Origin: Bacteroidales bacterium
GTDB taxonomy: Bacteria; Bacteroidota; Bacteroidia; Bacteroidales; GCA-2748055
Direction: 5' to 3'
DNA length: 64,000 nt
NCBI GenBank assembly: GCA_038316435.1
Contig: JBBQAQ010000001.1
Location: forward strand, 2,267 to 66,266
The stretch's first letter is position 1, and the number at the start of each line of letters is the position of its first letter. Under the pieces are notes generated by a model. It saw only the letters and a program-made list of their open reading frames with translations. It made no database searches and was not told where the DNA came from. This document shows positions 5,660 to 30,095 of the stretch, one piece after another. The position numbers and the translations under genes are program-made.

Positions 5660-5680
5660 GTTATCTATAGGTTTGCTGTT

Positions 5681-6985
5681 TTAATTGACCATTTCTTGTC
5701 CACCGGTCACAGGAATTGCCTGACCTGTCTCATATTCCTGCGATACAACGTAATAAATTGCTTTCATTATATCCTTTACTTGACATCCCCGGCCCAAAGG
5801 AACCTGATTTTCGTAATAACGCCTTACATCTTCGATTGTTTTTGCGCCAGCTACTTTTCCTGCTTTGAGGTACTGCACAAACAGCCCTTTTTCAGGGTCA
5901 GCCCAAAGTGGACCCTCAAAAAAATTACCGGGACAAATTGCATTTACCTTAATACGAGAGGGCGCAAGTTCCAAAGCAAATGATTGAGTTAGCCCGATAC
6001 CACCGAATTTTCCACCTGAATAAGCAAAGTTTCTGTTGCTGCCTTTTAAACCGGATTTTGAGTTAATTTGAATGATATCAGCGAAATAATCTTCTTTTTG
6101 TAGAGTTTGATTTTTCATTACTGCTGAGGCATATTTTGCACATAGAAAATATCCTTCATAGTTTATTTTGGTCATAAGTTCAAAGCTGGCAGGATCCATT
6201 TCTTCTAAACCTCCGGCTTTTAAAATACCAGCATTTGATATAAAAAGATCAATACCACCAAAATGTTTAACCACAGAGAAAATCAGGTTCTTTACAGAAT
6301 CCGGATTTGAAACATCTGTTTTTATAAAGCTTACTTCGTTTGCGCCACATAATGCAGATAATTCCTTACAAGTAGAAAGTCCTTTTTCAACATTCAGATC
6401 AGCAATGATCAGGTTTGCATGATCACATACAAGGCTTCTTGAAATACCCTCACCGAATCCTTGCGCGCCACCAGTAACTACACATATTTTTTGATTCAAT
6501 ATGCCGGGAAAGGCATTTGTGTATTCATATTTTGCATGGTTTTCCTGTTGAACTTCTAATTCTGAGATGCCTTTTTTAGATTGATTTAAGAAATGCAATA
6601 AACAGCTTTCAACTTCTTCATGCAATTGGCTAACTGCATGGGAATGATCTTCTGACGCGAGGATTCCGTAGTCTTTTATGAATATTACTTTTGGCTGGGT
6701 TGAATTTACGGATTTAAAAATGTTTAATTCATGAATAAAAGATTTTAAGATTATTTCAGGGGATGAAGATTGGTTGAGAAATAAGAATTTTCCGTCCCAA
6801 AGTGCGGATTCAGAGGGTTTGTAAGTTGAAACAGCTTTTTCCAGCATTATAAGGTCATTGCAGAAAGGCATAGTGAATGTTTTGCTTTGCAGTCTGACAA
6901 TTTTTAAACATTTATCAGACAAAATCATACGGATTGACGGTATGAACTCAATGATATTCGCGTTTACCGATATTTCTTTTTCCAT
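5681..6985 (-). CDS. Short-chain dehydrogenase/reductase with an ~165-aa N-terminal extension (related to the SDR half of bifunctional aldolase/SDR proteins or to sorbitol-6-P dehydrogenase)
   Basis: VVTGGAQGFGEGI (TGxxxGxG), NAG, and a YSGGKFGG active-site Y..K region from about aa 166 onward. The N-terminal part has no motif I recognise. Confidence 0.7.
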   Translation of the reverse strand: MEKEISVNANIIEFIPSIRMILSDKCLKIVRLQSKTFTMPFCNDLIMLEKAVSTYKPSESALWDGKFLFLNQSSSPEIILKSFIHELNIFKSVNSTQPKVIFIKDYGILASEDHSHAVSQLHEEVESCLLHFLNQSKKGISELEVQQENHAKYEYTNAFPGILNQKICVVTGGAQGFGEGISRSLVCDHANLIIADLNVEKGLSTCKELSALCGANEVSFIKTDVSNPDSVKNLIFSVVKHFGGIDLFISNAGILKAGGLEEMDPASFELMTKINYEGYFLCAKYASAVMKNQTLQKEDYFADIIQINSKSGLKGSNRNFAYSGGKFGGIGLTQSFALELAPSRIKVNAICPGNFFEGPLWADPEKGLFVQYLKAGKVAGAKTIEDVRRYYENQVPLGRGCQVKDIMKAIYYVVSQEYETGQAIPVTGGQEMVN

Positions 6986-15578: not shown

Positions 15579-16922
15579 ATGAATCATATTTTCATCCACA
15601 TAGCAGGAATATGTATCTTATCTATTTGTTCATTTTTCCATGCAATTTTACTTCAGGCTCAGAATCCAATCTGTCCTGAAGGTGTCTACTTTGCTGACCC
15701 TTCCGCTCATGTATGGAAAAATGGAAAACTTTATCTTTACGGATCGCTTGATGAAAGTACAGATTATTACTGCTCTACAAAACACCACATTCTGGAAACT
15801 AGCGATATGAAGTCGTGGAAAGTACTTGAAAACAGGTTTTCCTCTAGTGGAAAGGATGATCAGGTGCCCTATAACAATGAATTGCTTTATGCCCCTGATT
15901 GTGCTTTCAGAAATGATACATTTTATCTTTATTATTGTCAACCTGACAGAATTTCTGCAGAAGGTGTTGCAACATCAACTCTCCCTGGAGGCCCTTTCAC
16001 TGGTGGTGAAATGCTGAAACTACCTGATTATCAGGAAATCGATCCCTCTTTATTTATCGATGATGATGGTCAAGCATATTATATGTGGGGACAATTTAGC
16101 CTTAAGATGGCAAAAATGGGTAGCAATATGCGAGACCTTGATTTGAGTACATTTAAAGACAGTATTATTACAGAAGCTGACCACTATTTTCATGAAGGTG
16201 CCTATATGGCAAAGAGAAATGGAGTTTATTATCTTATCTATGCTGATATTAGCAGGTCAGTCATGCCTACCTGTATTGGATATGCTACATCTGATTCTCC
16301 ATTCGGACCCTTTAAATACGGTGGTGTTATCATTGACAACGATAATTGTGATCCCGGAAACTGGAACAATCATGGCTCAATTGCTGAATTCAATAATAAC
16401 TGGTATGTGTTCTATCACCGTGCCACACACGGATCAACTATGATGAGAAAAGCTTGCGTAGAACCAATTTATTTTTTACCTGATGGCGGAATTCCTGAAG
16501 TTGAAATGACTTCTCAGGGAGCTGGCGGCCCATTAAAAGCAAACGAAAAGATTGGCGCTGAAAGGGCCTGTTTACTCCATGGAAATATCAGAATTCAGGC
16601 AGTGGATAATCAGAATGAAGTGCTTACCCAAATAAAAAATGGTGATAAAGCAGTATTTAAGTATATCGACTTCGGTGATGGAATGAAATCAGTGAAAATC
16701 AGATTTTCCCCCGGATCAAAAAATTGTACATTAGTAATTTCTGCTGATAGTCCTTGGAAAAATCAACTTGCATCAATTAATATTAAAGCCAACTCCGATC
16801 CAAAAGAATGGAAAACAGAGTCTTTTGAAATTTCAAAAATTTCCGGTGTACATGCCCTGTGGTTTCAATTCTGGGGAGAAGAGGGCGAAAGCATGTCCAT
16901 CGACTGGTTCCTTTTCGAGTAA
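15579..16922 (+). CDS. Secreted glycoside hydrolase family 43 with a C-terminal carbohydrate-binding (CBM6-like) module
   Basis: Signal peptide plus the GH43 catalytic triad contexts FADPSAHVW (Asp base), EIDPSLFIDDDG (Asp) and HEGAYM (Glu acid). The C-terminal beta-sandwich ends in DWFLFE. Confidence 0.8.
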   Translation: MNHIFIHIAGICILSICSFFHAILLQAQNPICPEGVYFADPSAHVWKNGKLYLYGSLDESTDYYCSTKHHILETSDMKSWKVLENRFSSSGKDDQVPYNNELLYAPDCAFRNDTFYLYYCQPDRISAEGVATSTLPGGPFTGGEMLKLPDYQEIDPSLFIDDDGQAYYMWGQFSLKMAKMGSNMRDLDLSTFKDSIITEADHYFHEGAYMAKRNGVYYLIYADISRSVMPTCIGYATSDSPFGPFKYGGVIIDNDNCDPGNWNNHGSIAEFNNNWYVFYHRATHGSTMMRKACVEPIYFLPDGGIPEVEMTSQGAGGPLKANEKIGAERACLLHGNIRIQAVDNQNEVLTQIKNGDKAVFKYIDFGDGMKSVKIRFSPGSKNCTLVISADSPWKNQLASINIKANSDPKEWKTESFEISKISGVHALWFQFWGEEGESMSIDWFLFE

Positions 16923-17617
16923 TTAAAAGTGTAAACTGCAGCTAATCCAATAATATAGCTACTTTGGGGTGCTGTTACATTCATTTCTTTCTCATAATGA
17001 AAATAACTGTCAATATCGAGATCATTTGTTAGTTTCCACTCAAAACCAATAGTGTAGCGGTTTTGGCGTATTTCATTCATTCCATCAAGTCTGAAAAAAT
17101 TATCCCATCCAAGATATGGATCAACAAGTTTGCTCAGATTGTAACTTAATCCAAAGGCATTCCTTATATAATGATCTGACGAATTTGTAGTACTAATAAA
17201 ATGTTTTGAAACCTCGCTTGTACTCTTCCATGTATCCTGATATCGAATTCTGTAACTGATTTTAATATCTTTATTAAAAATATTCGTACCTGTTGCCGCA
17301 TCAAAGGAAAATCTTGACTTATTGTATTTTGTAACGTACGGAATGGTCTCAGCATCTGAAGGTATTAGGTAATATCTGTAAATAGCCTTTACATCAAGGT
17401 ATTTAAATACTTTATATCTCAAGGAGAATTCTGATAAGGTGTAATTGTACCGACTTATATTCTCATTAAACCGGAATTGCTGTTCAAAATCAAATCTTAA
17501 CTTTTTAGAAATATTATATTTTATAACCGGACCAGTCCATAATTCAGTACTTTTTACCTGAGCGCCGACAACTGCAAATAAACCCGTTAACACCAAAACC
17601 GTAAATAACTTTTTCAT
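16865..17617 (-). CDS. Outer-membrane beta-barrel-like protein (DUF2490-like)
   Basis: Signal peptide (LFAVVGAQV), alternating aromatic/polar beta-strand pattern and a GLAAVYTF beta-signal-like motif near the C-terminus. The 3' end overlaps the GH43 3' end by 58 nt. Confidence 0.5.
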   Translation of the reverse strand: MKKLFTVLVLTGLFAVVGAQVKSTELWTGPVIKYNISKKLRFDFEQQFRFNENISRYNYTLSEFSLRYKVFKYLDVKAIYRYYLIPSDAETIPYVTKYNKSRFSFDAATGTNIFNKDIKISYRIRYQDTWKSTSEVSKHFISTTNSSDHYIRNAFGLSYNLSKLVDPYLGWDNFFRLDGMNEIRQNRYTIGFEWKLTNDLDIDSYFHYEKEMNVTAPQSSYIIGLAAVYTFNYSKRNQSMDMLSPSSPQN

Positions 17618-21205: not shown

Positions 21206-21607
21206 ATGAAGCCTAGTCATATTGAACACATTGGAATTGCAGTTGCTAATCTTGATGAAGCAATTGAGTATTATAAAAATGTCCTGGGACTTGAATGCTA
21301 TGCCGTTGAAGAAGTTAAAGATCAGAAAGTGAAGACAGCTTTTTTCAAAATCGGAGATACAAAAATTGAATTACTTGAATCAACTGACCCGGAAGGTCCA
21401 ATTGGAAAATTTATCGAGAAAAAAGGACCTGGAATCCATCATATCGCATTTGCTGTTTCTGATGTGGCTAAGGCATTGAGTGAAGCCGAAAGCAAAGGGG
21501 TTCAACTGATTGATAAACAGCCGAGAAAAGGAGCTGAAGGATTAAGTATCGGATTTCTTCATCCCAAATCTACACTTGGTGTTTTAACTGAATTTTGCGG
21601 AGAATAA
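21206..21607 (+). CDS. mce: Methylmalonyl-CoA epimerase (VOC/glyoxalase fold)
   Basis: [28 protein letters not shown]...GPGIHHIAF. The internal ATG at 21206 gives ~133 aa, and the upstream in-frame extension in the track looks non-coding. Confidence 0.85.
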
Positions 21608-21618
21608 AAATTTTACAT

Positions 21619-23178
21619 ATGTCACAACAGGATAAAATCCGACAGCTTATTGATCTCAGGATCAAAGCAAAACAGGGTGGAGGTTCCACCAGAGTTGAAG
21701 CCCAGCATTCTAAAGGAAAACATACTGCAAGAGAAAGAATCGATATATTACTTGACGAGGGTAGTTTCGAAGAATATGATATGTTCGTTACACACCGTAC
21801 TCATGATTTTGGACTTGAAAATGAGCAATATCTGGGAGATGGAGTTATAACTGGACATGGAACCATTGATGGCCGGATTGTTTTTGTTTATGCACAGGAC
21901 TTTACTGTTTTTGGTGGATCACTTTCAGAAACCCATGCTAAAAAGATCTGCAAAATTATGGATCAGGCTATGAAAGTGGGAGCACCTGTGATAGGTATTA
22001 ACGATAGTGGAGGAGCACGTATTCAGGAAGGAGTAAGGAGTTTGGCAGGGTATGCTGAAATTTTTGAACGCAATATTCTTGCGTCCGGGGTTATACCACA
22101 AATCTCAGCAATCTTTGGTCCTTGTGCAGGGGGAGCAGTTTATTCTCCCGCACTTACCGACCTTATTATTATGAGTGACCTTACATCCTATATGTTTGTT
22201 ACCGGCCCAAGGGTTACAAAAACGGTAACAGGTGAAGTAATTTCTATTGAAGAACTTGGTGGTGCAAAGGTACATGCCACAAAATCAGGAGTTTGCCATT
22301 TTGTAGCTCAGGACGAAGAGGAAGGTTTATTGTTGATCAGAAAGCTTATTTCATACTTTCCACAGAATAACCTTGAAGATCCTATTACCACTGAATGTAA
22401 TGATCCTATCGACAGGCTTGAAGATACTTTAAATGAAATTATCCCGGAAAACTCCAATGAGCCTTATGATGTTAAAGATGTAATTTTTGCTATTGTTGAT
22501 AATGGCGAATTTCTTGAGGTTCACAGAGATTATGCTAAAAATATAGTAGTAGGTTTTGCAAAATTCAATGGGTCACCTGTGGGAATCGTTGCCAATCAGC
22601 CTATTCACCTTGCCGGAGTTCTTGATATCAATTCATCGCGCAAAGCTGCGCGCTTTGTAAGGATGTGTGATAGTTTTAATATCCCTGTTGTTACTCTTGT
22701 TGATGTTCCGGGGTTTTTGCCTGGTAGTGCACAGGAATATGGGGGAATTATCATTCAGGGGGCTAAATTAATGTTTGCTTATGGTGAAGCTACAGTTCCG
22801 AAAGTTACTGTAACACTCAGAAAATCATATGGTGGAGCTCATGATGTAATGAGTTCCAAACAGCTTCGGGGGGATTTAAATTATGCCTGGCCAAGTGCAG
22901 AGATCGCTGTAATGGGGCCAAAAGGTGCCATTGAAATTCTGGAAGGAAAGAATATTGCCGGTTTTACCAGTGAAGAAGAAGCGAAAAAATATACGGAAAT
23001 GAAGGAGGATGAGTATAAAGAAAAATTTGCAACGCCTTATGAAGCAGCTAAATATGGCTATATAGACGATGTCATTGAACCACGAAATACCCGTTTCAGG
23101 GTTATTCGTGCCCTCCAGACACTTTCTACTAAAAAGGAAATGAATCCGCCTAAAAAACATCCAAATATACCTTTGTAA
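21619..23178 (+). CDS. mmdA: Methylmalonyl-CoA decarboxylase alpha subunit / acyl-CoA carboxyltransferase
   Basis: The carboxyltransferase family is recognisable from [31 protein letters not shown] and [12 protein letters not shown]. It is followed by oadG-like, BCCP and oadB-like genes. Confidence 0.9.
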
Positions 23179-23180
23179 AC

Positions 23181-23537
23181 ATGGGAACTATTCTGAGTTT
23201 TAGCGATATCAACTCATTTATTATAATGATTGCGATTCTGGGATACGTGATCGTATTCTTTTCCCTCCTTTTTTTGTATTTGTTTTTTTATTATCTCCCC
23301 AAACTGCTCTATTACAACTGGAAAAGAGAAAAGAAATCTTCCGGGAAAGAAATGCAAACAGTTGATGATTTAAATATCACAGGGGAAGAAACCGCTGCTA
23401 TAGCAATGGCTCTGCACCTTTTTCTGGAAGTGCATGACGAAGAAAGTGGGGTTTTAACTATCAATAAAGTTTCAAAACCCTATTCTCCATGGAGTTCAAA
23501 AATCTATGCTGTAAGAAATCAGTTTAACAGAATTTGA
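23181..23537 (+). CDS. OadG-family small membrane subunit of a Na+-translocating decarboxylase
   Basis: A single TM helix plus a GEETAAIAMALHLF motif typical of OadG/MmdD-type subunits, and its position between the carboxyltransferase and BCCP. Confidence 0.6.
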   Translation: MGTILSFSDINSFIIMIAILGYVIVFFSLLFLYLFFYYLPKLLYYNWKREKKSSGKEMQTVDDLNITGEETAAIAMALHLFLEVHDEESGVLTINKVSKPYSPWSSKIYAVRNQFNRI

Positions 23538-23551
23538 AAAAAGTTACTGAA

Positions 23552-23974
23552 ATGAAGAGTTACAAATTTACTATTAATGGCAATGCATATAGCGTTGATA
23601 TTCATGAAATTGAGAACAACACTGTTCACCTTGATGTGAATGGGACATCTTTCAATGTTGAGCTAGATCGGAAAATTAAAACAACGAAAACTCCTACAAT
23701 CGTCAGATCAAATTCAACGGATCCACTTAAACCAAAAATAGAAAAGTCTGAAGAAGGCACTGCCTTTGCTATTTCTTCTCCTTTACCGGGGCTAATAGTT
23801 GATGTTTTTGTTCGTCCGGGTGATATAATCCGACAGGGCCAAAAAATTCTTAGTATGGAGGCCATGAAAATGGTAAATCAGATTCTGTCTGAAAAAGATG
23901 GAGTAGTTGAAAGTGTAAAAGTCGCACCAGGCCAGCATGTACTTCAAGGGGATACTCTAATTGAAATTATCTGA
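23552..23974 (+). CDS. Biotin carboxyl carrier subunit (biotinyl domain)
   Basis: C-terminal LSMEAMKMVNQI (the biotinyl-Lys EAMKM motif). The track start at 23534 is a TTG, so I prefer the ATG at 23552. Confidence 0.85.
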   Translation: MKSYKFTINGNAYSVDIHEIENNTVHLDVNGTSFNVELDRKIKTTKTPTIVRSNSTDPLKPKIEKSEEGTAFAISSPLPGLIVDVFVRPGDIIRQGQKILSMEAMKMVNQILSEKDGVVESVKVAPGQHVLQGDTLIEII

Positions 23975-23978
23975 TCCC

Positions 23979-25355
23979 ATGAAAAAACTCTTAACTATTT
24001 TTGCAATAATTGCAATACTAACTGTACTTCGATCCCTTGTAATACCTGATCAAGCAGATCAGAATACAAAAGTTCTTCAAACCGAACTGAATCAACAACT
24101 CGTCAATGCTGATAATGGCACTGAAGTTCAGAATAAAACTGATAATCTGGTTCAGCAAACTAAACAAGGCCTTATAAAATTTTGGGCATATACCGGTTTC
24201 AGAAATGCTACCCCAGGTCATTTTGTGATGATTCTGGTTGCACTTCTTTTTATTTTTCTGGCAATCAAGTTTGATTATGAGCCTCTTCTGCTCGTGCCTA
24301 TCGGCGTTGGAATTATTCTTGGAAATATTCCTTTTTTTCAGGATGGGGGTGCAAACCTGCAAATCGGAATTTATCAACCAGGAAGTGTTTTGTATTACTT
24401 GTATTTTGGAGTTATTAAAGGGATTTATCCACCTTTAATATTTCTTGGAATCGGTGCCATGACTGATTTTTCATCCTTGATATCTAATCCAAAGCTTATT
24501 CTGCTTGGTGCAGCAGCCCAAGTGGGAATATTTATAACATTTATTGGAGCAATTGCATTAGGATTTCATGCTCGCGAAGCTGGTGCTATTGGTATTATAG
24601 GTGGAGCTGATGGCCCAACTGCAATTTATCTGGCATCAAAACTGGCAAATGGAGTGGATATCATCGGACAAACAATAAATGGAGATCCAATATTTGTGAA
24701 AAATCTGATAGGTCCGATTGCTATTGCTGCATACTCTTATATGGCTCTGGTACCGGTTATTCAACCTCCAATTATGTATTTGTTTACAACAAAAAAAGAG
24801 CGTTTAATACGAATGAAACCGCCAAGAGCTGTTTCGAAACTTGAAAAAATACTTTTCCCAATAATTGGACTGATTCTTACATGTTTCATTTCACCTGCTG
24901 CATTGCCACTTCTTGGAATGCTTTTTCTGGGAAACTTACTGAAAGAGTCAACTGTTACAAAACGATTAGCTGAAACTGCACGAAATCCCTTAATTGATAT
25001 TGTTACGATTATTATCGGCGTGACAGTTGGAGCATCCACGCAAGCCGATGTATTCCTTACAAACGATTCGTTGATTATTTTTGGATTAGGTGCGGTTTCC
25101 TTTATGTTTGCTACTGCAGGTGGAGTGGTGTTTGCCAAAGTAATGAACCTATTTACATCTAAAGACAATCAAATCAATCCATTAATCGGAGCTGCCGGTG
25201 TTTCAGCGGTTCCTGACAGTGCCAGAGTTGTGCAAAATGTTGGTTTAAAGGAAGATCCAACCAATCACCTCCTGATGCATGCAATGGCTCCTAATGTTGC
25301 AGGAGTTATCGGTTCAGCAGTTGCAGCAGGTATATTATTGAGTTTCCTTATTTAA
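23979..25355 (+). CDS. mmdB: Na+-translocating decarboxylase beta subunit (OadB/MmdB/GcdB family)
   Basis: A polytopic membrane protein with family-typical segments (GAMTDF, IIGGADGPTAIY, GAAGVSAVP, MAPNVAGVIGSAVAAG). I prefer the ATG at 23979 to the TTG at 23961. Confidence 0.9.
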   Translation: MKKLLTIFAIIAILTVLRSLVIPDQADQNTKVLQTELNQQLVNADNGTEVQNKTDNLVQQTKQGLIKFWAYTGFRNATPGHFVMILVALLFIFLAIKFDYEPLLLVPIGVGIILGNIPFFQDGGANLQIGIYQPGSVLYYLYFGVIKGIYPPLIFLGIGAMTDFSSLISNPKLILLGAAAQVGIFITFIGAIALGFHAREAGAIGIIGGADGPTAIYLASKLANGVDIIGQTINGDPIFVKNLIGPIAIAAYSYMALVPVIQPPIMYLFTTKKERLIRMKPPRAVSKLEKILFPIIGLILTCFISPAALPLLGMLFLGNLLKESTVTKRLAETARNPLIDIVTIIIGVTVGASTQADVFLTNDSLIIFGLGAVSFMFATAGGVVFAKVMNLFTSKDNQINPLIGAAGVSAVPDSARVVQNVGLKEDPTNHLLMHAMAPNVAGVIGSAVAAGILLSFLI

Positions 25356-25391
25356 TGTTTTAAAGCAAGCATCCCATTTGTAGGAATAAAG

Positions 25392-25399
25392 TAAATTTG
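25392..25399 (+). promoter_or_regulatory. Candidate -7 promoter box (TAnnTTTG) in the mmdB-citDE gap
   Basis: TAAATTTG lies 16 nt upstream of the ATG at 25415. It suggests citrate lyase may have its own promoter. Confidence 0.3.
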
Positions 25400-25414
25400 T
25401 GAAAAAAGAAATTA

Positions 25415-26632
25415 ATGGGAAAAATTGCCAATGCAGGTAATAAAGGGGATAAGGTACGTTCGGATTGCTTTATGGAGCTCGAATTAACTGACTCCGGAGG
25501 AATTCAGATTGAATTAAAAAGTAAGGTTACTGCTCTGTTTGGGGCCGATATCAGGAAAAATGCACAGGAAATGTTGCGTTTTTTTGGTATTGCTAATGCC
25601 CGGTTATCAATCGAAGACTCTGGTGCTTTGCCTTATGTATTGGCTGCTCGTCTGGAAGCCATTATAAATCAACTTATTAAAACCAACAAACCCTTTTTAC
25701 TCCCTTTAATAGAAGAAAACAACTATCATAGTTCAAAAGAGAAATTCAGGTTTTCCCGTTTGTACCTACCAGGAAATTCACCAGCAATGATGATTAATGC
25801 CGGGATTCATAAGCCTAATGGTATTATCCTTGATCTTGAGGATTCAGTTGCTTTTGAGAAAAAGCCTGAGGCCCGATTTCTTGTGAGAAATGCACTTCTT
25901 CAGGTCAACTTCTTCGGTGCTGAAAGAATGGTAAGGATTAATCAAATGCCAGCAGGGTTAGATGACCTTGAATACATCATTCCCTATAATACTCATCTTA
26001 TCCTCTTGCCAAAATGTGAAAGTGCTGATCAAATAATTACACTTGAAAATGAAATTAATCGAATTCAAACTGCTTGTGGTCAAAACAATACGATTTTTAT
26101 TATGCCAATAATTGAAAGTGCACTGGGAGTTGAAAAAGCTTTTGAAATTGCATGTGCATCTGAAAATATTGTTGCATTGGCAATTGGTCTTGAGGATTAT
26201 ACTGCGGATCTCGGAGTACAGCGCACAATAGGAGGAACAGAATCGTTATATGCCAGGACTCGTCTTGTAAATGCATGCAAAGCAGCTGGAATACAAGCAA
26301 TTGACTCAGTATTTTCTGATGTGGGTGATATGGAAGCTCTGTTTACAAACGTGAAAAATTCGAAAAGTCTTGGTTTTGAGGGAATGGGATGTATTCATCC
26401 GAGGCAGATCGAGATAATTCATAAAGGCTTTGCCCCTGATAATGAGGAAATTGAAAAGTCAAAAAAGATAGTCAATGCGTTCGATACGGCAAAAGAAAAA
26501 GGCTTAGGCGTTGTTTCTGTAGGTACTAAAATGATCGATGCTCCCGTAGTAAAGAGAGCTCAGAAAACTATTGACCTGGCAATAAAATTAGGAATGCTTT
26601 CAAAGAATTGGAGGAACGGGTATGTCGCATAA
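25415..26632 (+). CDS. Citrate lyase acyl-carrier (CitD, gamma) fused to citryl-CoA lyase (CitE, beta)
   Basis: The first ~95 aa align with CitD (AGNKGDKVRSD.. versus AGTLESGD; EDSGALPYVLAARLEAI versus DDKGALDCILRARLEAL). The remainder is CitE-like (RLYLPGNSPAMM, ILDLEDSV). Confidence 0.8.
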   Translation: MGKIANAGNKGDKVRSDCFMELELTDSGGIQIELKSKVTALFGADIRKNAQEMLRFFGIANARLSIEDSGALPYVLAARLEAIINQLIKTNKPFLLPLIEENNYHSSKEKFRFSRLYLPGNSPAMMINAGIHKPNGIILDLEDSVAFEKKPEARFLVRNALLQVNFFGAERMVRINQMPAGLDDLEYIIPYNTHLILLPKCESADQIITLENEINRIQTACGQNNTIFIMPIIESALGVEKAFEIACASENIVALAIGLEDYTADLGVQRTIGGTESLYARTRLVNACKAAGIQAIDSVFSDVGDMEALFTNVKNSKSLGFEGMGCIHPRQIEIIHKGFAPDNEEIEKSKKIVNAFDTAKEKGLGVVSVGTKMIDAPVVKRAQKTIDLAIKLGMLSKNWRNGYVA

Positions 26633-28184
26633 TAAAATGATTCTTAATGCCGCAGGTCGACTGGTTCCGGAAGAGATAAATGGGGAAAAACAAATTCCAT
26701 TTATGGGAGTGGGCAAATATACTCCCACTGGAAGAAAAGCATCCGGTATAATTAAAAGTAATACTCAGTTTCCAGAGGATGGTAATAAATTGGTAAACAG
26801 TCTAAAAGAAGCTTTACTTAAAGCGGGACTTAAAGATGGAATGACCATTTCCACCCATCATCATTTTCGCAATGGCGACCTGCTTGCAAACATGATATTT
26901 GATATTGCTCACGAACTGGGAGTTAAAAACTTAAGATGGTTTCCATCTGCATCCTTTTCATGCCACGCACATCTGATCCCTTATCTTGAAGACGGCACGA
27001 TCCATTCTATCGAAGGTAGTATGAACGGACCCTTGGGTAAATTTGTAACTGAAGGGAGAATGGCAGGAACAGCAATTCTACGTTCACATGGTGGCCGGTA
27101 TCAGGCAATTCAGGATGGGGAAGTTAAAATAGATATTGCGGTAATCGGTGCTCCAACTGCTGATGTATTTGGTAATGCCAATGGTTTATTTGGGCCATCA
27201 GCCTGCGGATTACTTGGGTTTGCACTTGGCGACTCGGAATATGCTGATAAAGTGATAGTTGTTACCGATAATCTGGTTCCGTTTCCATGTATCCCATGGC
27301 AAATTCAGGGAAATAATATTGATTTTACAGTTGTAATAGATAAACTCGGAGACCCGGAAAAGATTGTATCCGGCACAACTCAGATTACAAAGAGTCCCGA
27401 TCGACTTCTGCTCGCAGAACTAACTGCAAAATTCTGTGATGCCGCAGGGATAATTAAGGATGGCTTTTCATTTCAGGCAGGTGCCGGTGGAACATCCCTC
27501 TCAGTTGCTGAATATTTCAGAGCAATTATGAAGGAAAAAGGGATAAAGGCTCGTTTTGCCAGAGGGGGTAGTAACAAATATCTGGTTGAAATGCTTAAAG
27601 AGGGTTTAGTTGATTATATTCTTGATGGTCAGACATTTGACCTAGATGGTGTGCGATCAATGGCTGAAAACCCTAATCATACATGGACAACACCTTTTAC
27701 AAGCTATAATTATCATTCCAAAGGCAATTTTGCTGAGTTTGTTGATGTAGTAATTCTAGGAGCTACAGAAGTGGACATTAATTTTAATGCAAATGTTGTA
27801 ACACACTCTGATGGCTATCTCCTGCACGGAATTGGAGGGTGGCAGAATTGTTTGTTTTCCAAAACTGTAATAATACCGGTTCCTTTATTTCGTGACAGAA
27901 TACCAGTGGTTCGTGATCAGGTTACAACGCTTTGTGGACCTGGTGAATTGATTGATGTTATTGTAACGGAGAGGGGTATTGCAATTAATCCCCTGAGAAA
28001 AGATCTAATAGAGAAAACAAAAGATTCAGGACTTCCTTTCAAATCAATTCAGGAGCTTAAAACTGAAGCGGAAAAGATTTGTGGAAAGCCTGATTTGCCT
28101 GTTTTAGAGGATAAAATAATTGCCGGAATCAAATGGGTTGATGGAACTCTTATTGATATAGTAAGGCAGGTTAAAACTTCTTAA
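26622..28184 (+). CDS. citF: Citrate lyase alpha subunit (citrate CoA-transferase)
   Basis: 520 aa, with a CitF-like N-terminus (..GR.VPEEINGEKQIPFMGVGKY) and family length. It overlaps citDE by 11 nt. Confidence 0.85.
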   Translation: MSHNKMILNAAGRLVPEEINGEKQIPFMGVGKYTPTGRKASGIIKSNTQFPEDGNKLVNSLKEALLKAGLKDGMTISTHHHFRNGDLLANMIFDIAHELGVKNLRWFPSASFSCHAHLIPYLEDGTIHSIEGSMNGPLGKFVTEGRMAGTAILRSHGGRYQAIQDGEVKIDIAVIGAPTADVFGNANGLFGPSACGLLGFALGDSEYADKVIVVTDNLVPFPCIPWQIQGNNIDFTVVIDKLGDPEKIVSGTTQITKSPDRLLLAELTAKFCDAAGIIKDGFSFQAGAGGTSLSVAEYFRAIMKEKGIKARFARGGSNKYLVEMLKEGLVDYILDGQTFDLDGVRSMAENPNHTWTTPFTSYNYHSKGNFAEFVDVVILGATEVDINFNANVVTHSDGYLLHGIGGWQNCLFSKTVIIPVPLFRDRIPVVRDQVTTLCGPGELIDVIVTERGIAINPLRKDLIEKTKDSGLPFKSIQELKTEAEKICGKPDLPVLEDKIIAGIKWVDGTLIDIVRQVKTS

Positions 28185-28187
28185 CTC

Positions 28188-28227
28188 AAAAAAAAAGCTG
28201 AATATTTATTTATTCAGCTCTTTTTTT
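28188..28227. terminator. Bidirectional intrinsic terminator between convergent citF and the DUF4956 gene
   Basis: A 9-bp perfect stem, AGCTGAATA (28196-28204) / TATTCAGCT (28211-28219), with a 6-nt loop. It is flanked by an A-run upstream and a T-run downstream. Confidence 0.65.
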
Positions 28228-28228
28228 A

Positions 28229-28906
28229 TCAGGATTGATATCCGCCTTCTTCAAGATTCTTTCCGTGTTCCTTAATATTGAAAAAGATTCTGATGCGGGC
28301 TGAATCTCTTAAGAAATCTATCTTACCAATTTCTACACGAGTAATATCAAGACCAGTACGTTCTTTCAGATCAGCAATCAGATCAGCTTCTCTATCAGGT
28401 TTTATAAGGTCAATTTTTTCATATTCAACCATCTTTTTTCCTTCTTTGTTAACCAGCCAGATTTTTTCCATTATCCATACAAGGAAAATGATGATAAGAT
28501 TTGTAAAGAATAACTCAGCGTAGGATATCTTTTTATTTGCCAGAGCATTTATTACAGAAACTCCGATTACAATGAACAGGAAAGTCATATCTTTTATAGA
28601 TATCGAATCAGTTCTGTAACGAATTATTCCAAATATAGCGAACAGCCCTAATGCAAAACCAATTTGGAGTTTTACACTATTAAGCAGGAAACACAAAAGA
28701 AAAATTACTGCGCTGATCATAATATAAGAAAACAGATAATCCTTTTGCTTGGAAGTTGAATAATACAAATACCTCACAATTACTACAATAACTGCTAGAT
28801 TCAGGAAAAAGCGCAATAATAATTCCCCGAAATCAGGCGTATTAATTAGTTCGATGCCAAATATCTGAGATGAAGTGGCAAGTAGTGTTAGAATGTTAAC
28901 CATCAT
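28229..28906 (-). CDS. DUF4956-like polytopic membrane protein
   Basis: About 5 TM helices followed by a soluble charged C-terminal domain. The IFGIIRYRT segment is as I recall for DUF4956. Its start overlaps the upstream VTC gene by 11 nt. Confidence 0.55.
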   Translation of the reverse strand: MMVNILTLLATSSQIFGIELINTPDFGELLLRFFLNLAVIVVIVRYLYYSTSKQKDYLFSYIMISAVIFLLCFLLNSVKLQIGFALGLFAIFGIIRYRTDSISIKDMTFLFIVIGVSVINALANKKISYAELFFTNLIIIFLVWIMEKIWLVNKEGKKMVEYEKIDLIKPDREADLIADLKERTGLDITRVEIGKIDFLRDSARIRIFFNIKEHGKNLEEGGYQS

Positions 28907-29651
28907 TTACTTTTTTATATGCTTTAACTTTTATTTTGAAATTATTATTCTTGGTATGTTCTTCAATCATTGCAATAGCCGTGCAATATTTACTAAAGGA
29001 TGAACTTTTAATGCCTAACTCCTGTAGCTTCTGTTCTATAAAAGTGATAGGTTCGTCCTTTGATTTCTTAACTTCTGCAATTACTAAATTTCCCAAGTTA
29101 GCTTCTTTCCCAAGCCTCTCGAGCTTAAGGTTAAAATCCATGGTAATTCGTTCTCTTTCATTATTACTCACCAGAGTAATCCTGTTAAAATGGTTTGTTG
29201 CTTGTGCAAGGAGTTGATCGCCAGAAAGATGAGTATGCTTTGAAAAAAAAGCTCTATCTTCATCAGTAAGTACCTCCAGATTTTTATCTGTACTAACCCG
29301 TCTTTTGAATGTTATTCCTTTGTTACTCTTAAACTTAATCTCTGAAAAAGAAATATTATTGGCGATATATAGTCGTTTCCTTAATTTAAAACGATTCAGT
29401 TTGCCATTGTGATGATCAAGGTAAAGTTTTAACGAGGGAGTGTCGTAATATACTGTTTTATAGGGTTGCACTAAATATTTTTCAACTTGTAATATCCTGT
29501 AATGATCCTGAATTTCCGAAATAAGCCAGGGTAAAAGTTTTAAACTGAAAAAGTATTTTATGTCAATACGCTCATTAAAAGCAATTTGCTTCATATCTTC
29601 CAGGCGGGTAACTTTAAAGCCTCCTACAAGTGAATTCAAATCTATTGACAT
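28896..29651 (-). CDS. VTC-domain protein (triphosphate-tunnel, polyphosphate-polymerase-like)
   Basis: Alternating basic/acidic beta-strand signature of the VTC/TTM tunnel: ERIDIKYF, YKTVYYDT, NRFKLRKRLY, SEIKFK, RERITMDFNL, VIAEVK and SFSKYC. Confidence 0.65.
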   Translation of the reverse strand: MSIDLNSLVGGFKVTRLEDMKQIAFNERIDIKYFFSLKLLPWLISEIQDHYRILQVEKYLVQPYKTVYYDTPSLKLYLDHHNGKLNRFKLRKRLYIANNISFSEIKFKSNKGITFKRRVSTDKNLEVLTDEDRAFFSKHTHLSGDQLLAQATNHFNRITLVSNNERERITMDFNLKLERLGKEANLGNLVIAEVKKSKDEPITFIEQKLQELGIKSSSFSKYCTAIAMIEEHTKNNNFKIKVKAYKKVNDG

Positions 29652-29878
29652 TGATGTATGTAATATATTAAAAAATTGTGTTTATAAAGTTAATTTTATT
29701 TTTTCAAAAAGCTTGAGTTTTTGTAAAAAAGGTCTGAATTTACAATGTTTCTAATTAGTAGATTAAAAATGGTAAAGCACTAAAAGCTCCTTTATATTGT
29801 TTTTCTGTTTTAGTTTTATTGCACACAAAAAAAACAATAAAATGTATTTGCTTCTTGAGATACAAGGCATATTTTTTA

Positions 29879-29933: not shown

Positions 29934-30095
29934 ATGCAAAAATTTAAATGCATTATCTGCGGATTTGTATACGATCCGGAAGAAGGAGATCCCGATGGAG
30001 GAATACCTCCTGGAACGGCATTTGAAGATATTCCGGATACATGGATATGTCCTGTTTGTGGTGTTAGAAAAGCTGACTTTGAACCCGTTGATTAA
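29934..30095 (+). CDS. Rubredoxin
   Basis: My own translation is [53 protein letters not shown], with two CxxCG iron-binding knuckles. It is absent from the ORF track, presumably because it is only 53 aa. Confidence 0.9.

Follow-up and report, generated by a model that had tools for sequence, protein, structure and literature searches.

Overlapping genes for a Vtc4-type triphosphate tunnel enzyme and a DUF4956 membrane protein in a Bacteroidales genome: a candidate membrane-tethered polyphosphate polymerase

Contig JBBQAQ010000001.1 of a Bacteroidales bacterium (assembly GCA_038316435.1) carries, within the 64,000-nucleotide (nt) stretch analysed here (positions 2,267 to 66,266, referred to as the window), a pair of overlapping genes whose products belong to the VTC-domain and DUF4956 families (Table 1). 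Both open reading frames (ORFs) lie where the original prediction, made from the sequence alone, had placed them, on the minus strand and with 251 and 225 amino acids (aa), and the 11-nt overlap that it had pointed out is found in the sequence as ATGATGGTTAA. The TAA stop codon of the VTC gene occupies positions 28898-28896 and the ATG of the DUF4956 gene starts at 28906, leaving an overlap of 8 nt if counted from the second ATG. Such an overlap points to co-transcription, and the translation of both genes is probably coupled. In this report, we describe this pair, its relatives in other bacteria, and the different functions that could be attributed to it.

Table 1. Features of the VTC-DUF4956 locus (positions in the window) and residues of the VTC protein aligned to yeast Vtc4
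Feature	Position	Strand	Description and basis
VTC-type triphosphate tunnel enzyme (predicted)	28896..29651	-	251 aa; Pfam PF09359, AlphaFold2 model, Foldseek
DUF4956 inner-membrane partner (predicted)	28229..28906	-	225 aa; Pfam PF16316, AlphaFold2 model
Stop/start overlap ATGATGGTTAA	28896..28906	-	11 nt; sequence
Hairpin terminator (predicted)	28187..28228	.	stem-loop 28196..28219, 9-bp stem, flanking A7 and T9 runs
Conserved AT-rich block AAAATAAAAYTAACTTTA	29685..29704	-	33 nt upstream of the VTC start; four-genome alignment
Rubredoxin-like ORF	29934..30095	+	53 aa, CxxCG...CPxCG; divergent from the VTC gene
Residues of the VTC protein and of Vtc4	R28=R196, K32=K200, K89=R264, R91=R266		hhalign
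Residues of the VTC protein and of Vtc4	E104=E279, K106=K281, K116=K294, R118=R296		hhalign
Residues of the VTC protein and of Vtc4	F155=Y359, R157=R361, R168=R373		hhalign
Residues of the VTC protein and of Vtc4	E193=E426, K195=K428, S220=S457, K221=K458		hhalign

The pair is delimited on both sides. Between the DUF4956 stop codon and the convergent gene for citrate lyase alpha lies a hairpin which, with its A/T runs paired, reaches -19 kcal/mol (z = -6.2; 0 of 200 shuffled sequences as good), and which would be a terminator common to both genes; its stem-loop can terminate transcription in both directions. On the other side, a 282-bp spacer with only 21% GC separates the VTC start from the divergent rubredoxin gene. 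The overlap, the terminator, and the divergent rubredoxin gene together mark the pair as a separate transcription unit among unrelated metabolic genes which, from the reading of their translations, we take to encode an oxaloacetate decarboxylase beta subunit, citrate lyase, a PepD dipeptidase, rubredoxin, and an isocitrate/isopropylmalate-type dehydrogenase. None of these flanking metabolic genes has an obvious functional tie to the pair. Both the bidirectional terminator and the isolated position between unrelated genes had been part of the original prediction.

The product of the upstream gene aligns to positions 2-233 of the 235-position Pfam VTC profile, PF09359, with 84.7 bits (cutoff 23; E 9.3e-24), and consists of the tunnel domain only, with no signal peptide, SPX domain, or transmembrane segment. 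Its AlphaFold2 model (mean predicted local distance difference test, pLDDT, 90.7; predicted template modelling score, pTM, 0.87) has the eight-stranded beta-barrel of the triphosphate tunnel fold, and the Foldseek search of this model against the PDB returned the Vtc4 chains 8i6v_E and 3g3r as the best matches (E ~1e-11, TMq 0.62). The top 13 matches were all tunnel domains of Vtc4, Vtc3, or Vtc2 (E 1e-11 to 3e-9, TM-score ~0.6 on the query), followed by E. coli ygiF (5e-9) and then by CYTH/thiamine-triphosphatase enzymes (1e-7 to 1e-5). Thus, the VTC domain recognized in the original prediction is recovered both by the hidden Markov model (HMM) search and by the fold. The family defined in this way is large, counting 7,837 clusters at 50% identity with a threshold of E<=1e-3 (2,314 with E<=1e-30), and is under purifying selection. 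Among the matches listed, the 150 best-scoring clusters are all stand-alone proteins of ~250 aa, and no natural VTC-DUF4956 fusion is present among these 150 representatives. Neither NCBIfam nor PADLOC holds a model for the VTC or the DUF4956 protein, and a reading of the pair as a defence system was dropped on these grounds.

The resemblance to Vtc4 extends to the residues of the active site. The bacterial VTC profile was aligned by hhalign to the sequence of Vtc4 residues 190-481, which is identical to chain 3G3Q_A over 291 residues, and the conservation of each position was taken from an HMM alignment of 267 family members, among them 50%-identity cluster representatives and the Deinococcus and Aminobacter homologues. 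The path of the alignment crosses a series of exact motifs (RxxxKY, YYD, KxR twice, ExK, NR, RxxxD, ExK, and FSK). In the cryo-electron microscopy structure of the yeast VTC complex, the triphosphate is bound by K200, R264, R266, K281, Y359, R361, S457, and K458, whose mutation lowers polyphosphate, and E426 is the Mn ligand; K458 is moreover the single residue that parts the active Vtc4 from the inactive Vtc2 and Vtc3, where Ile or Leu is found instead (bioRxiv 10.1101/2023.01.27.525886). K32, K89, R91, K106, R157, S220, and K221 of the window protein, which occupy seven of these ligand positions, are kept in 265-267 of the 267 homologues, with the conservative replacement of R264 by Lys (K89), and the equivalent of the Mn2+ ligand, E193, in an AEVK aligned to the LEVK of Vtc4, is invariant (267/267). 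The first strand reads R28-I-D30-I-K32, that is, RxDxK, with an invariant Arg at the first position and an invariant Asp or Glu at the second one. The ExExK motif of the CYTH enzymes is therefore absent from this protein, its first Glu being replaced, like in Vtc4, by an invariant Arg. Two additional invariant basic residues lining the strands, R93 and K108, differ from Vtc4. Judged on these residues, the VTC protein looks like an active Vtc4-type tunnel enzyme, with a sequence compatible with either polymerization or hydrolysis.

The second gene encodes a protein matching the whole Pfam DUF4956 profile (PF16316, positions 1-169 of 169, with 185.5 bits for a cutoff of 30.6 and E 8.4e-55), and the HMM search thus upheld the family label of the original prediction. 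The AlphaFold2 model (pLDDT 76) has five helices (residues 23-52, 56-74, 78-98, 104-122, and 129-151), followed by a beta-alpha-beta-beta, ACT-like domain at residues 155-210, which agrees with the five transmembrane segments and the charged soluble tail first described for this protein. From the charged loops, this C-terminal domain is probably cytoplasmic, in agreement with the published prediction for a streptococcal homologue. The most conserved motif is the glycine-rich GFALGLFAIFGIIRYRT in transmembrane helix 3, and the conserved basic residues are found at the helix ends, with no obvious pore lining among them. Across the Bacteroidota, the membrane protein is much more conserved (~60-68% identity) than its VTC partner (35-42%). 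When compared with the PDB by Foldseek, no solved structure matched the whole chain, and the tail gave weak matches to ACT-domain folds, such as the regulatory subunit of aspartate kinase (probability 0.9, E 0.3). DUF4956 is the only Pfam family found on this protein even at E<=10, and so it has no detectable relation to MgtC or to the membrane domain carried by the eukaryotic VTC subunits, which corresponds to Pfam DUF202.

Homology to MgtC had been proposed for the Streptococcus intermedius member of the family, described as an MgtC-like protein with transmembrane helices and an intracellular ACT domain (PMC12345266). MgtC/SapB proteins do resemble DUF4956 in their layout, of about five transmembrane helices and a small ACT-like cytoplasmic domain. 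However, no significant sequence or profile similarity joins both families: there is no match to PF02308, and hhalign against a purpose-built MgtC alignment gave a Prob of 0.08% (E 0.66), both alignments being shallow (Neff about 2), so that a very remote relationship is still possible. No full-length MgtC structure appears among the PDB fold matches of DUF4956.

Across phyla, VTC and DUF4956 occur as an obligate pair. In a scan at one genome per species, the best 80 of 519 relatives were examined which, together with the window, make up 81 loci dominated by Bacteroidota, three of them ending too near a contig edge to be assessed. DUF4956 is adjacent to the VTC gene in all 78 assessable loci, directly downstream and on the same strand in 77 of them, with a gap of -83 to +32 nt in 75. 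Among plasmid and chromid records, 17 have a VTC match and 17 a DUF4956 match, and the 16 records common to both sets, from Deinococcus, Aminobacter, Shinella, Nitratireductor, Nonomuraea, and Streptomyces (Deinococcota, Alphaproteobacteria, and Actinomycetota), carry the genes side by side. In the Alphaproteobacteria, the order is inverted, with DUF4956 preceding VTC, and the overlap is kept. An adjacency maintained from phylum to phylum in spite of such an inversion argues strongly that the pair is a functional unit, and the co-occurrence in other genomes expected from the original prediction (78/78 loci and 16/17 plasmid records) holds. The record with DUF4956 only, the Pseudoalteromonas (Gammaproteobacteria) plasmid NZ_CP142031.1, carries a truncated VTC remnant directly upstream of DUF4956. 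This remnant (5661..5975 of the examined stretch), missing from the gene table, encodes 104 aa, all from the C-terminal part (E 9e-17). It is overlapped on its 5' side by a lamin-tail-domain gene and followed by the intact DUF4956 gene and then a porin gene. This locus resembles a copy of the module in decay.

At the window locus itself, the order PepD-rubredoxin-VTC-DUF4956-citrate lyase is kept in three related metagenome-assembled genomes, with 77-83% protein identity. The divergent arrangement of rubredoxin and VTC is repeated in one syntenic genome, and a rubredoxin-coding sequence lies upstream of VTC in two more. Within the spacer, AAAATAAAAYTAACTTTA is near-identical across the four syntenic genomes, with one Y (T/C) position, while the rest of the spacer has diverged. 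We infer from this a candidate promoter element, similar to the -7 box of the Bacteroidota (TAnnTTTG) except for one mismatch; the exact box is absent from the upstream spacer, and its sole nearby match falls inside the ORF. A foreign origin of the pair, considered because of the low GC of the 28-30 kb bin, was rejected: its GC content at third codon positions matches that of the neighbours and the synteny is conserved, which makes it a resident of the lineage rather than a recent import. Converging on the terminator is a citrate-fermentation/decarboxylase-like cluster (21595..28184, plus strand), which includes a Pfam-confirmed carboxyltransferase and, from the reading of the translations, presumably small subunits, an oxaloacetate decarboxylase beta-like membrane subunit, and the citrate lyase alpha gene, as well as a citrate lyase beta gene that we read as fused to the gamma/acyl-carrier part.

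Around the pair, other genes recur in the 81 loci. A gene for a DUF2490 protein lies directly downstream of DUF4956 in 66 of them, a CotH kinase is present in 41, and two small lipoprotein/signal-peptide families also recur around the Bacteroidota pairs. N-termini resembling signal peptides are found in 65 of 70 DUF2490 proteins, 42 of 47 CotH proteins, and 34/34 and 26/28 members of the small lipoprotein families. The CotH kinases that the original prediction mentioned near such pairs are then frequent in other genomes, but the whole 64-kb window contains no ORF of the CotH cluster, and so lacks the three-gene cotH-VTC-DUF4956 arrangement; in the window and its three syntenic relatives the pair stands bare, without an adjacent CotH or DUF2490 gene. 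A DUF2490 gene does exist 11 kb away from the pair (16865..17617, minus strand; Pfam E 6e-18), downstream of GFO/IDH/MocA and aldo-keto reductase genes. This sugar/oxidoreductase context does not link it to the pair, and it was rejected as a displaced third member of the module; either DUF2490 genes are not restricted to the VTC module, or this one has changed place in the lineage of the window. The Deinococcus plasmid has the order CotH-VTC-DUF4956. In the three Alphaproteobacteria plasmids, a gene for an 'esterase-like activity of phytase family protein' comes after the pair, in Nitratireductor along with an inorganic phosphate transporter. Upstream of the pair, genes for an extracytoplasmic function (ECF) sigma factor with its anti-sigma factor and for an S8 peptidase are found in two of these three plasmids.

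Neither family is new to the databases or the literature. NCBI already names the proteins 'polyphosphate polymerase domain-containing protein' and 'DUF4956 domain-containing protein'. As early as 2010, VTC-domain genes, each followed by one for a membrane protein of 222-226 aa, and CotH were reported in NELoc-2 of C. perfringens (PMC2879425). Whitfield et al. described cotH and genes for a polyphosphate polymerase, DUF4956, and DUF4832 as accessory to, and contiguous with, the pel operons of Gram-positive bacteria (bioRxiv 10.1101/768473). In S. intermedius, the deletion of the DUF4956 homologue SIR_1592 or of SIR_1594, encoding a secreted CotH, altered the levels of Pel and halved aggregation in sputum medium (PMC12345266). 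The same authors stated that the three-gene cotH-VTC-DUF4956 synteny was not found outside pel loci (PMC12345266). Our data contradict this statement, since CotH-VTC-DUF4956 occurs in the Deinococcus plasmid and in about half of the examined loci, pel genes are not among the recurrent neighbours, and the Deinococcus and Bacteroidota loci make this synteny much wider. The review of VTC-domain evolution published in 2023 surveyed eukaryotes only (PMC10657179). The pair had originally been regarded as uncharacterized, which holds for its biochemistry, for which we found nothing in the literature, and not for the rest, as it has been named by NCBI, described next to pel loci, and knocked out in S. 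intermedius. The window locus is, therefore, the minimal form of a widespread, database-annotated module already touched by genetics, and not a new discovery as such.

Comparison with the better-known systems shows where the window pair stands. Yeast Vtc4 (PDB 3G3Q/3G3R, 7YTJ, and 8I6V) and the window protein share the tunnel beta-barrel fold, the Pfam family PF09359, the same triphosphate and Mn ligands including K458, and the company of a membrane protein. In contrast to Vtc4, the window protein has neither an SPX domain nor a fused three-helix transmembrane domain, no Vtc1/2/3-like subunits go with it, and its membrane partner is a separate polypeptide from a family unrelated to the VTC channel; it also has Phe for Y359, the extra invariant D30 on strand 1, and only 13-16% identity. 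The N-terminal SPX domain of the eukaryotic complex, and its C-terminal three-helix domain that forms a pore with the Vtc1 subunits, have no detectable counterpart in the window pair. The SIR_1594-1593-1592 module of S. intermedius has the same two families in adjacent positions, but no CotH, DUF4832, or pel genes are found near the window pair, which stands alone amid central-metabolism genes in a Bacteroidota-like organism, whereas the hosts of the pel-linked module are Gram-positive. The hydrolases of the CYTH/triphosphate tunnel metalloenzyme (TTM) group (E. coli ygiF, archaeal and plant TTMs, and thiamine triphosphatase) share the tunnel fold and bind a metal-triphosphate, and constitute the second tier of fold matches (5e-9 to 1e-5). 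However, they have ExExK where the window protein has RxDxK, they lack an operon-coupled membrane partner, and they fall outside PF09359. PPK1 and PPK2 would share the product, polyphosphate from a nucleoside triphosphate, if the window enzyme is indeed a polymerase. Their folds and mechanisms are unrelated to those of the VTC tunnel enzyme.

From all these elements we infer the substrate, the formation of a polymer, the physical complex, and the membrane topology as follows. The tunnel would bind a nucleoside triphosphate with Mn2+ or Mg2+ through the Lys/Arg/Ser/Glu set of Vtc4, and the gamma-phosphate would be transferred to a growing phosphate chain to give polyphosphate. The cytoplasmic ACT-like domain of DUF4956 would anchor the enzyme to the membrane, and DUF4956 would act as its regulator or take over its product. 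The pair would then be a self-contained operon for a cytoplasmic Vtc4-type tunnel enzyme and an obligate inner-membrane partner acting in phosphate/polyphosphate metabolism, and we consider that the chances of it being a membrane-tethered polyphosphate polymerase are about even. This preference for a polymerase comes from the full set of Vtc4 ligands, the lysine equivalent to K458, and the Arg found where ExExK has its first Glu. Several observations weigh against it, which leaves the polymerase activity of the VTC protein itself an evenly balanced proposal. The Tyr359 of the Vtc4-type polymerases is not found in the window protein, which has F155 instead, and the family as a whole has Phe in 147, Tyr in 116, and Cys in 4 of the 267 members, that is, Phe in 55%; in yeast, Y359F lowers polyphosphate (bioRxiv 10.1101/2023.01.27.525886). 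The invariant acidic D30, retained at the second Glu of the CYTH motif, would also fit hydrolysis. The deletion of the VTC homologue SIR_1593 of S. intermedius had no reported effect on aggregation or Pel (PMC12345266), and no assay of the biochemical activity of a bacterial member came up in our literature search. The sequence relationship to Vtc4 is also distant. Single-sequence searches of both window proteins against PDB sequences gave chance matches or none, a 37-sequence VTC profile found at best only Vtc2 (E 0.56), and the hhalign comparison of the bacterial profile with Vtc4, with a Prob of 18%, is weak alone. For this reason, we base the link to Vtc4 on the Pfam model together with the fold search and a low-stringency hhalign, and the residue map rests on the motif matches plus the fold match. 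Furthermore, bacteria usually already own PPK1 or PPK2.

The main rival to the polymerase is a membrane-tethered hydrolase, either a tripolyphosphatase, a polyphosphatase, or an NTPase, degrading phosphoanhydrides at the inner membrane face, whose substrate could be polyphosphate or triphosphate imported through the DUF2490 barrel or a porin and then DUF4956. Most bacterial triphosphate tunnel enzymes are hydrolytic and triphosphatases such as ygiF are the next-best fold matches. D30 and the Phe in place of Y359 also fit a hydrolase, and the downstream outer-membrane barrels or porins and the PiT/phytase-like neighbours suit scavenging as well as export. Nevertheless, this hydrolase would have lost the first Glu of ExExK to an invariant Arg as in Vtc4, it would have kept invariant the Vtc4-specific K458, lost in the inactive Vtc2 and Vtc3, and it would resemble Vtc4 with an E-value ~400-fold better than that of ygiF, all of which make us regard a hydrolase as rather unlikely. 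The direction of the transport just evoked can also be reversed, with polyphosphate made in the cytoplasm and threaded outwards, to the periplasm or the cell surface, by a pore of DUF4956 oligomers. The pair would then be a bacterial analogue of the eukaryotic VTC complex, and its exported product would be of use to secreted CotH kinases or to matrix polymers. Export would account for the signal-peptide-like N-termini of all the recurrent accessory neighbours, which the VTC protein itself lacks, for the secreted CotH of S. intermedius, where the deletion of CotH or DUF4956 alters an extracellular polysaccharide phenotype, and for the tight stop/start coupling, suggestive of a stoichiometric complex. 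It is harder to reconcile with a membrane protein for which no similarity to solved channels or to the channel domain of VTC was detected, and whose conserved basic residues lie at the helix ends instead of forming an obvious pore lining. It also sits poorly with the bare pair of the window and its three syntenic relatives, which shows that envelope partners are dispensable for the core. We therefore consider a combined polymerase and exporter doubtful. Of the VTC analogue first proposed, made of a tunnel enzyme and a membrane partner, the Vtc4 fold, the residue set, and the obligate pairing stand, but the translocase finds no support in a DUF4956 protein without detectable resemblance to the VTC transmembrane domain or to solved channels.

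A signalling or regulatory module, in which DUF4956 would be an MgtC-like regulator with an ACT ligand sensor and the tunnel protein would synthesize or degrade not a polymer but a small signal molecule, such as a cyclic or linear nucleotide, in the manner of the CyaB-type CYTH cyclases, appears very improbable. The transmembrane helices with a C-terminal ACT-like domain do parallel MgtC, as in the description of the S. intermedius homologue, the tail has its weak ACT fold matches, and the knockout phenotypes are modulatory rather than essential. However, neither the profile comparison with MgtC described above nor the Pfam search at E<=10 supports this relationship, and the residues of the tunnel fit the polymerase Vtc4 and not the cyclases.

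If the tunnel enzyme is a true polymerase, this pair would represent a bacterial polyphosphate synthase homologous to the eukaryotic one, beside PPK1 and PPK2, and would bear on the origin of the eukaryotic VTC system and on phosphate handling in thousands of Bacteroidota, Firmicutes, Actinomycetota, and Proteobacteria. A function directed to the envelope is suggested by the constant association with a conserved membrane protein and by the secreted CotH kinases often encoded nearby, and it could explain how phosphoryl donors are supplied to extracytoplasmic kinases. A more speculative extension, which we regard as improbable when taken as a whole, would be a third, PPK-independent polyphosphate route of bacteria operating in the manner of the eukaryotic VTC complex, where the polymer is made at the inner membrane face and exported via DUF4956 and, in Gram-negative bacteria, onward via DUF2490 or porin barrels, to act as a phosphoanhydride donor or polyanion in the ATP-free envelope, for instance for secreted CotH kinases or for matrix polysaccharides such as Pel. 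To this wider family the window adds a minimal system, a two-gene core with conserved synteny and without accessory genes.

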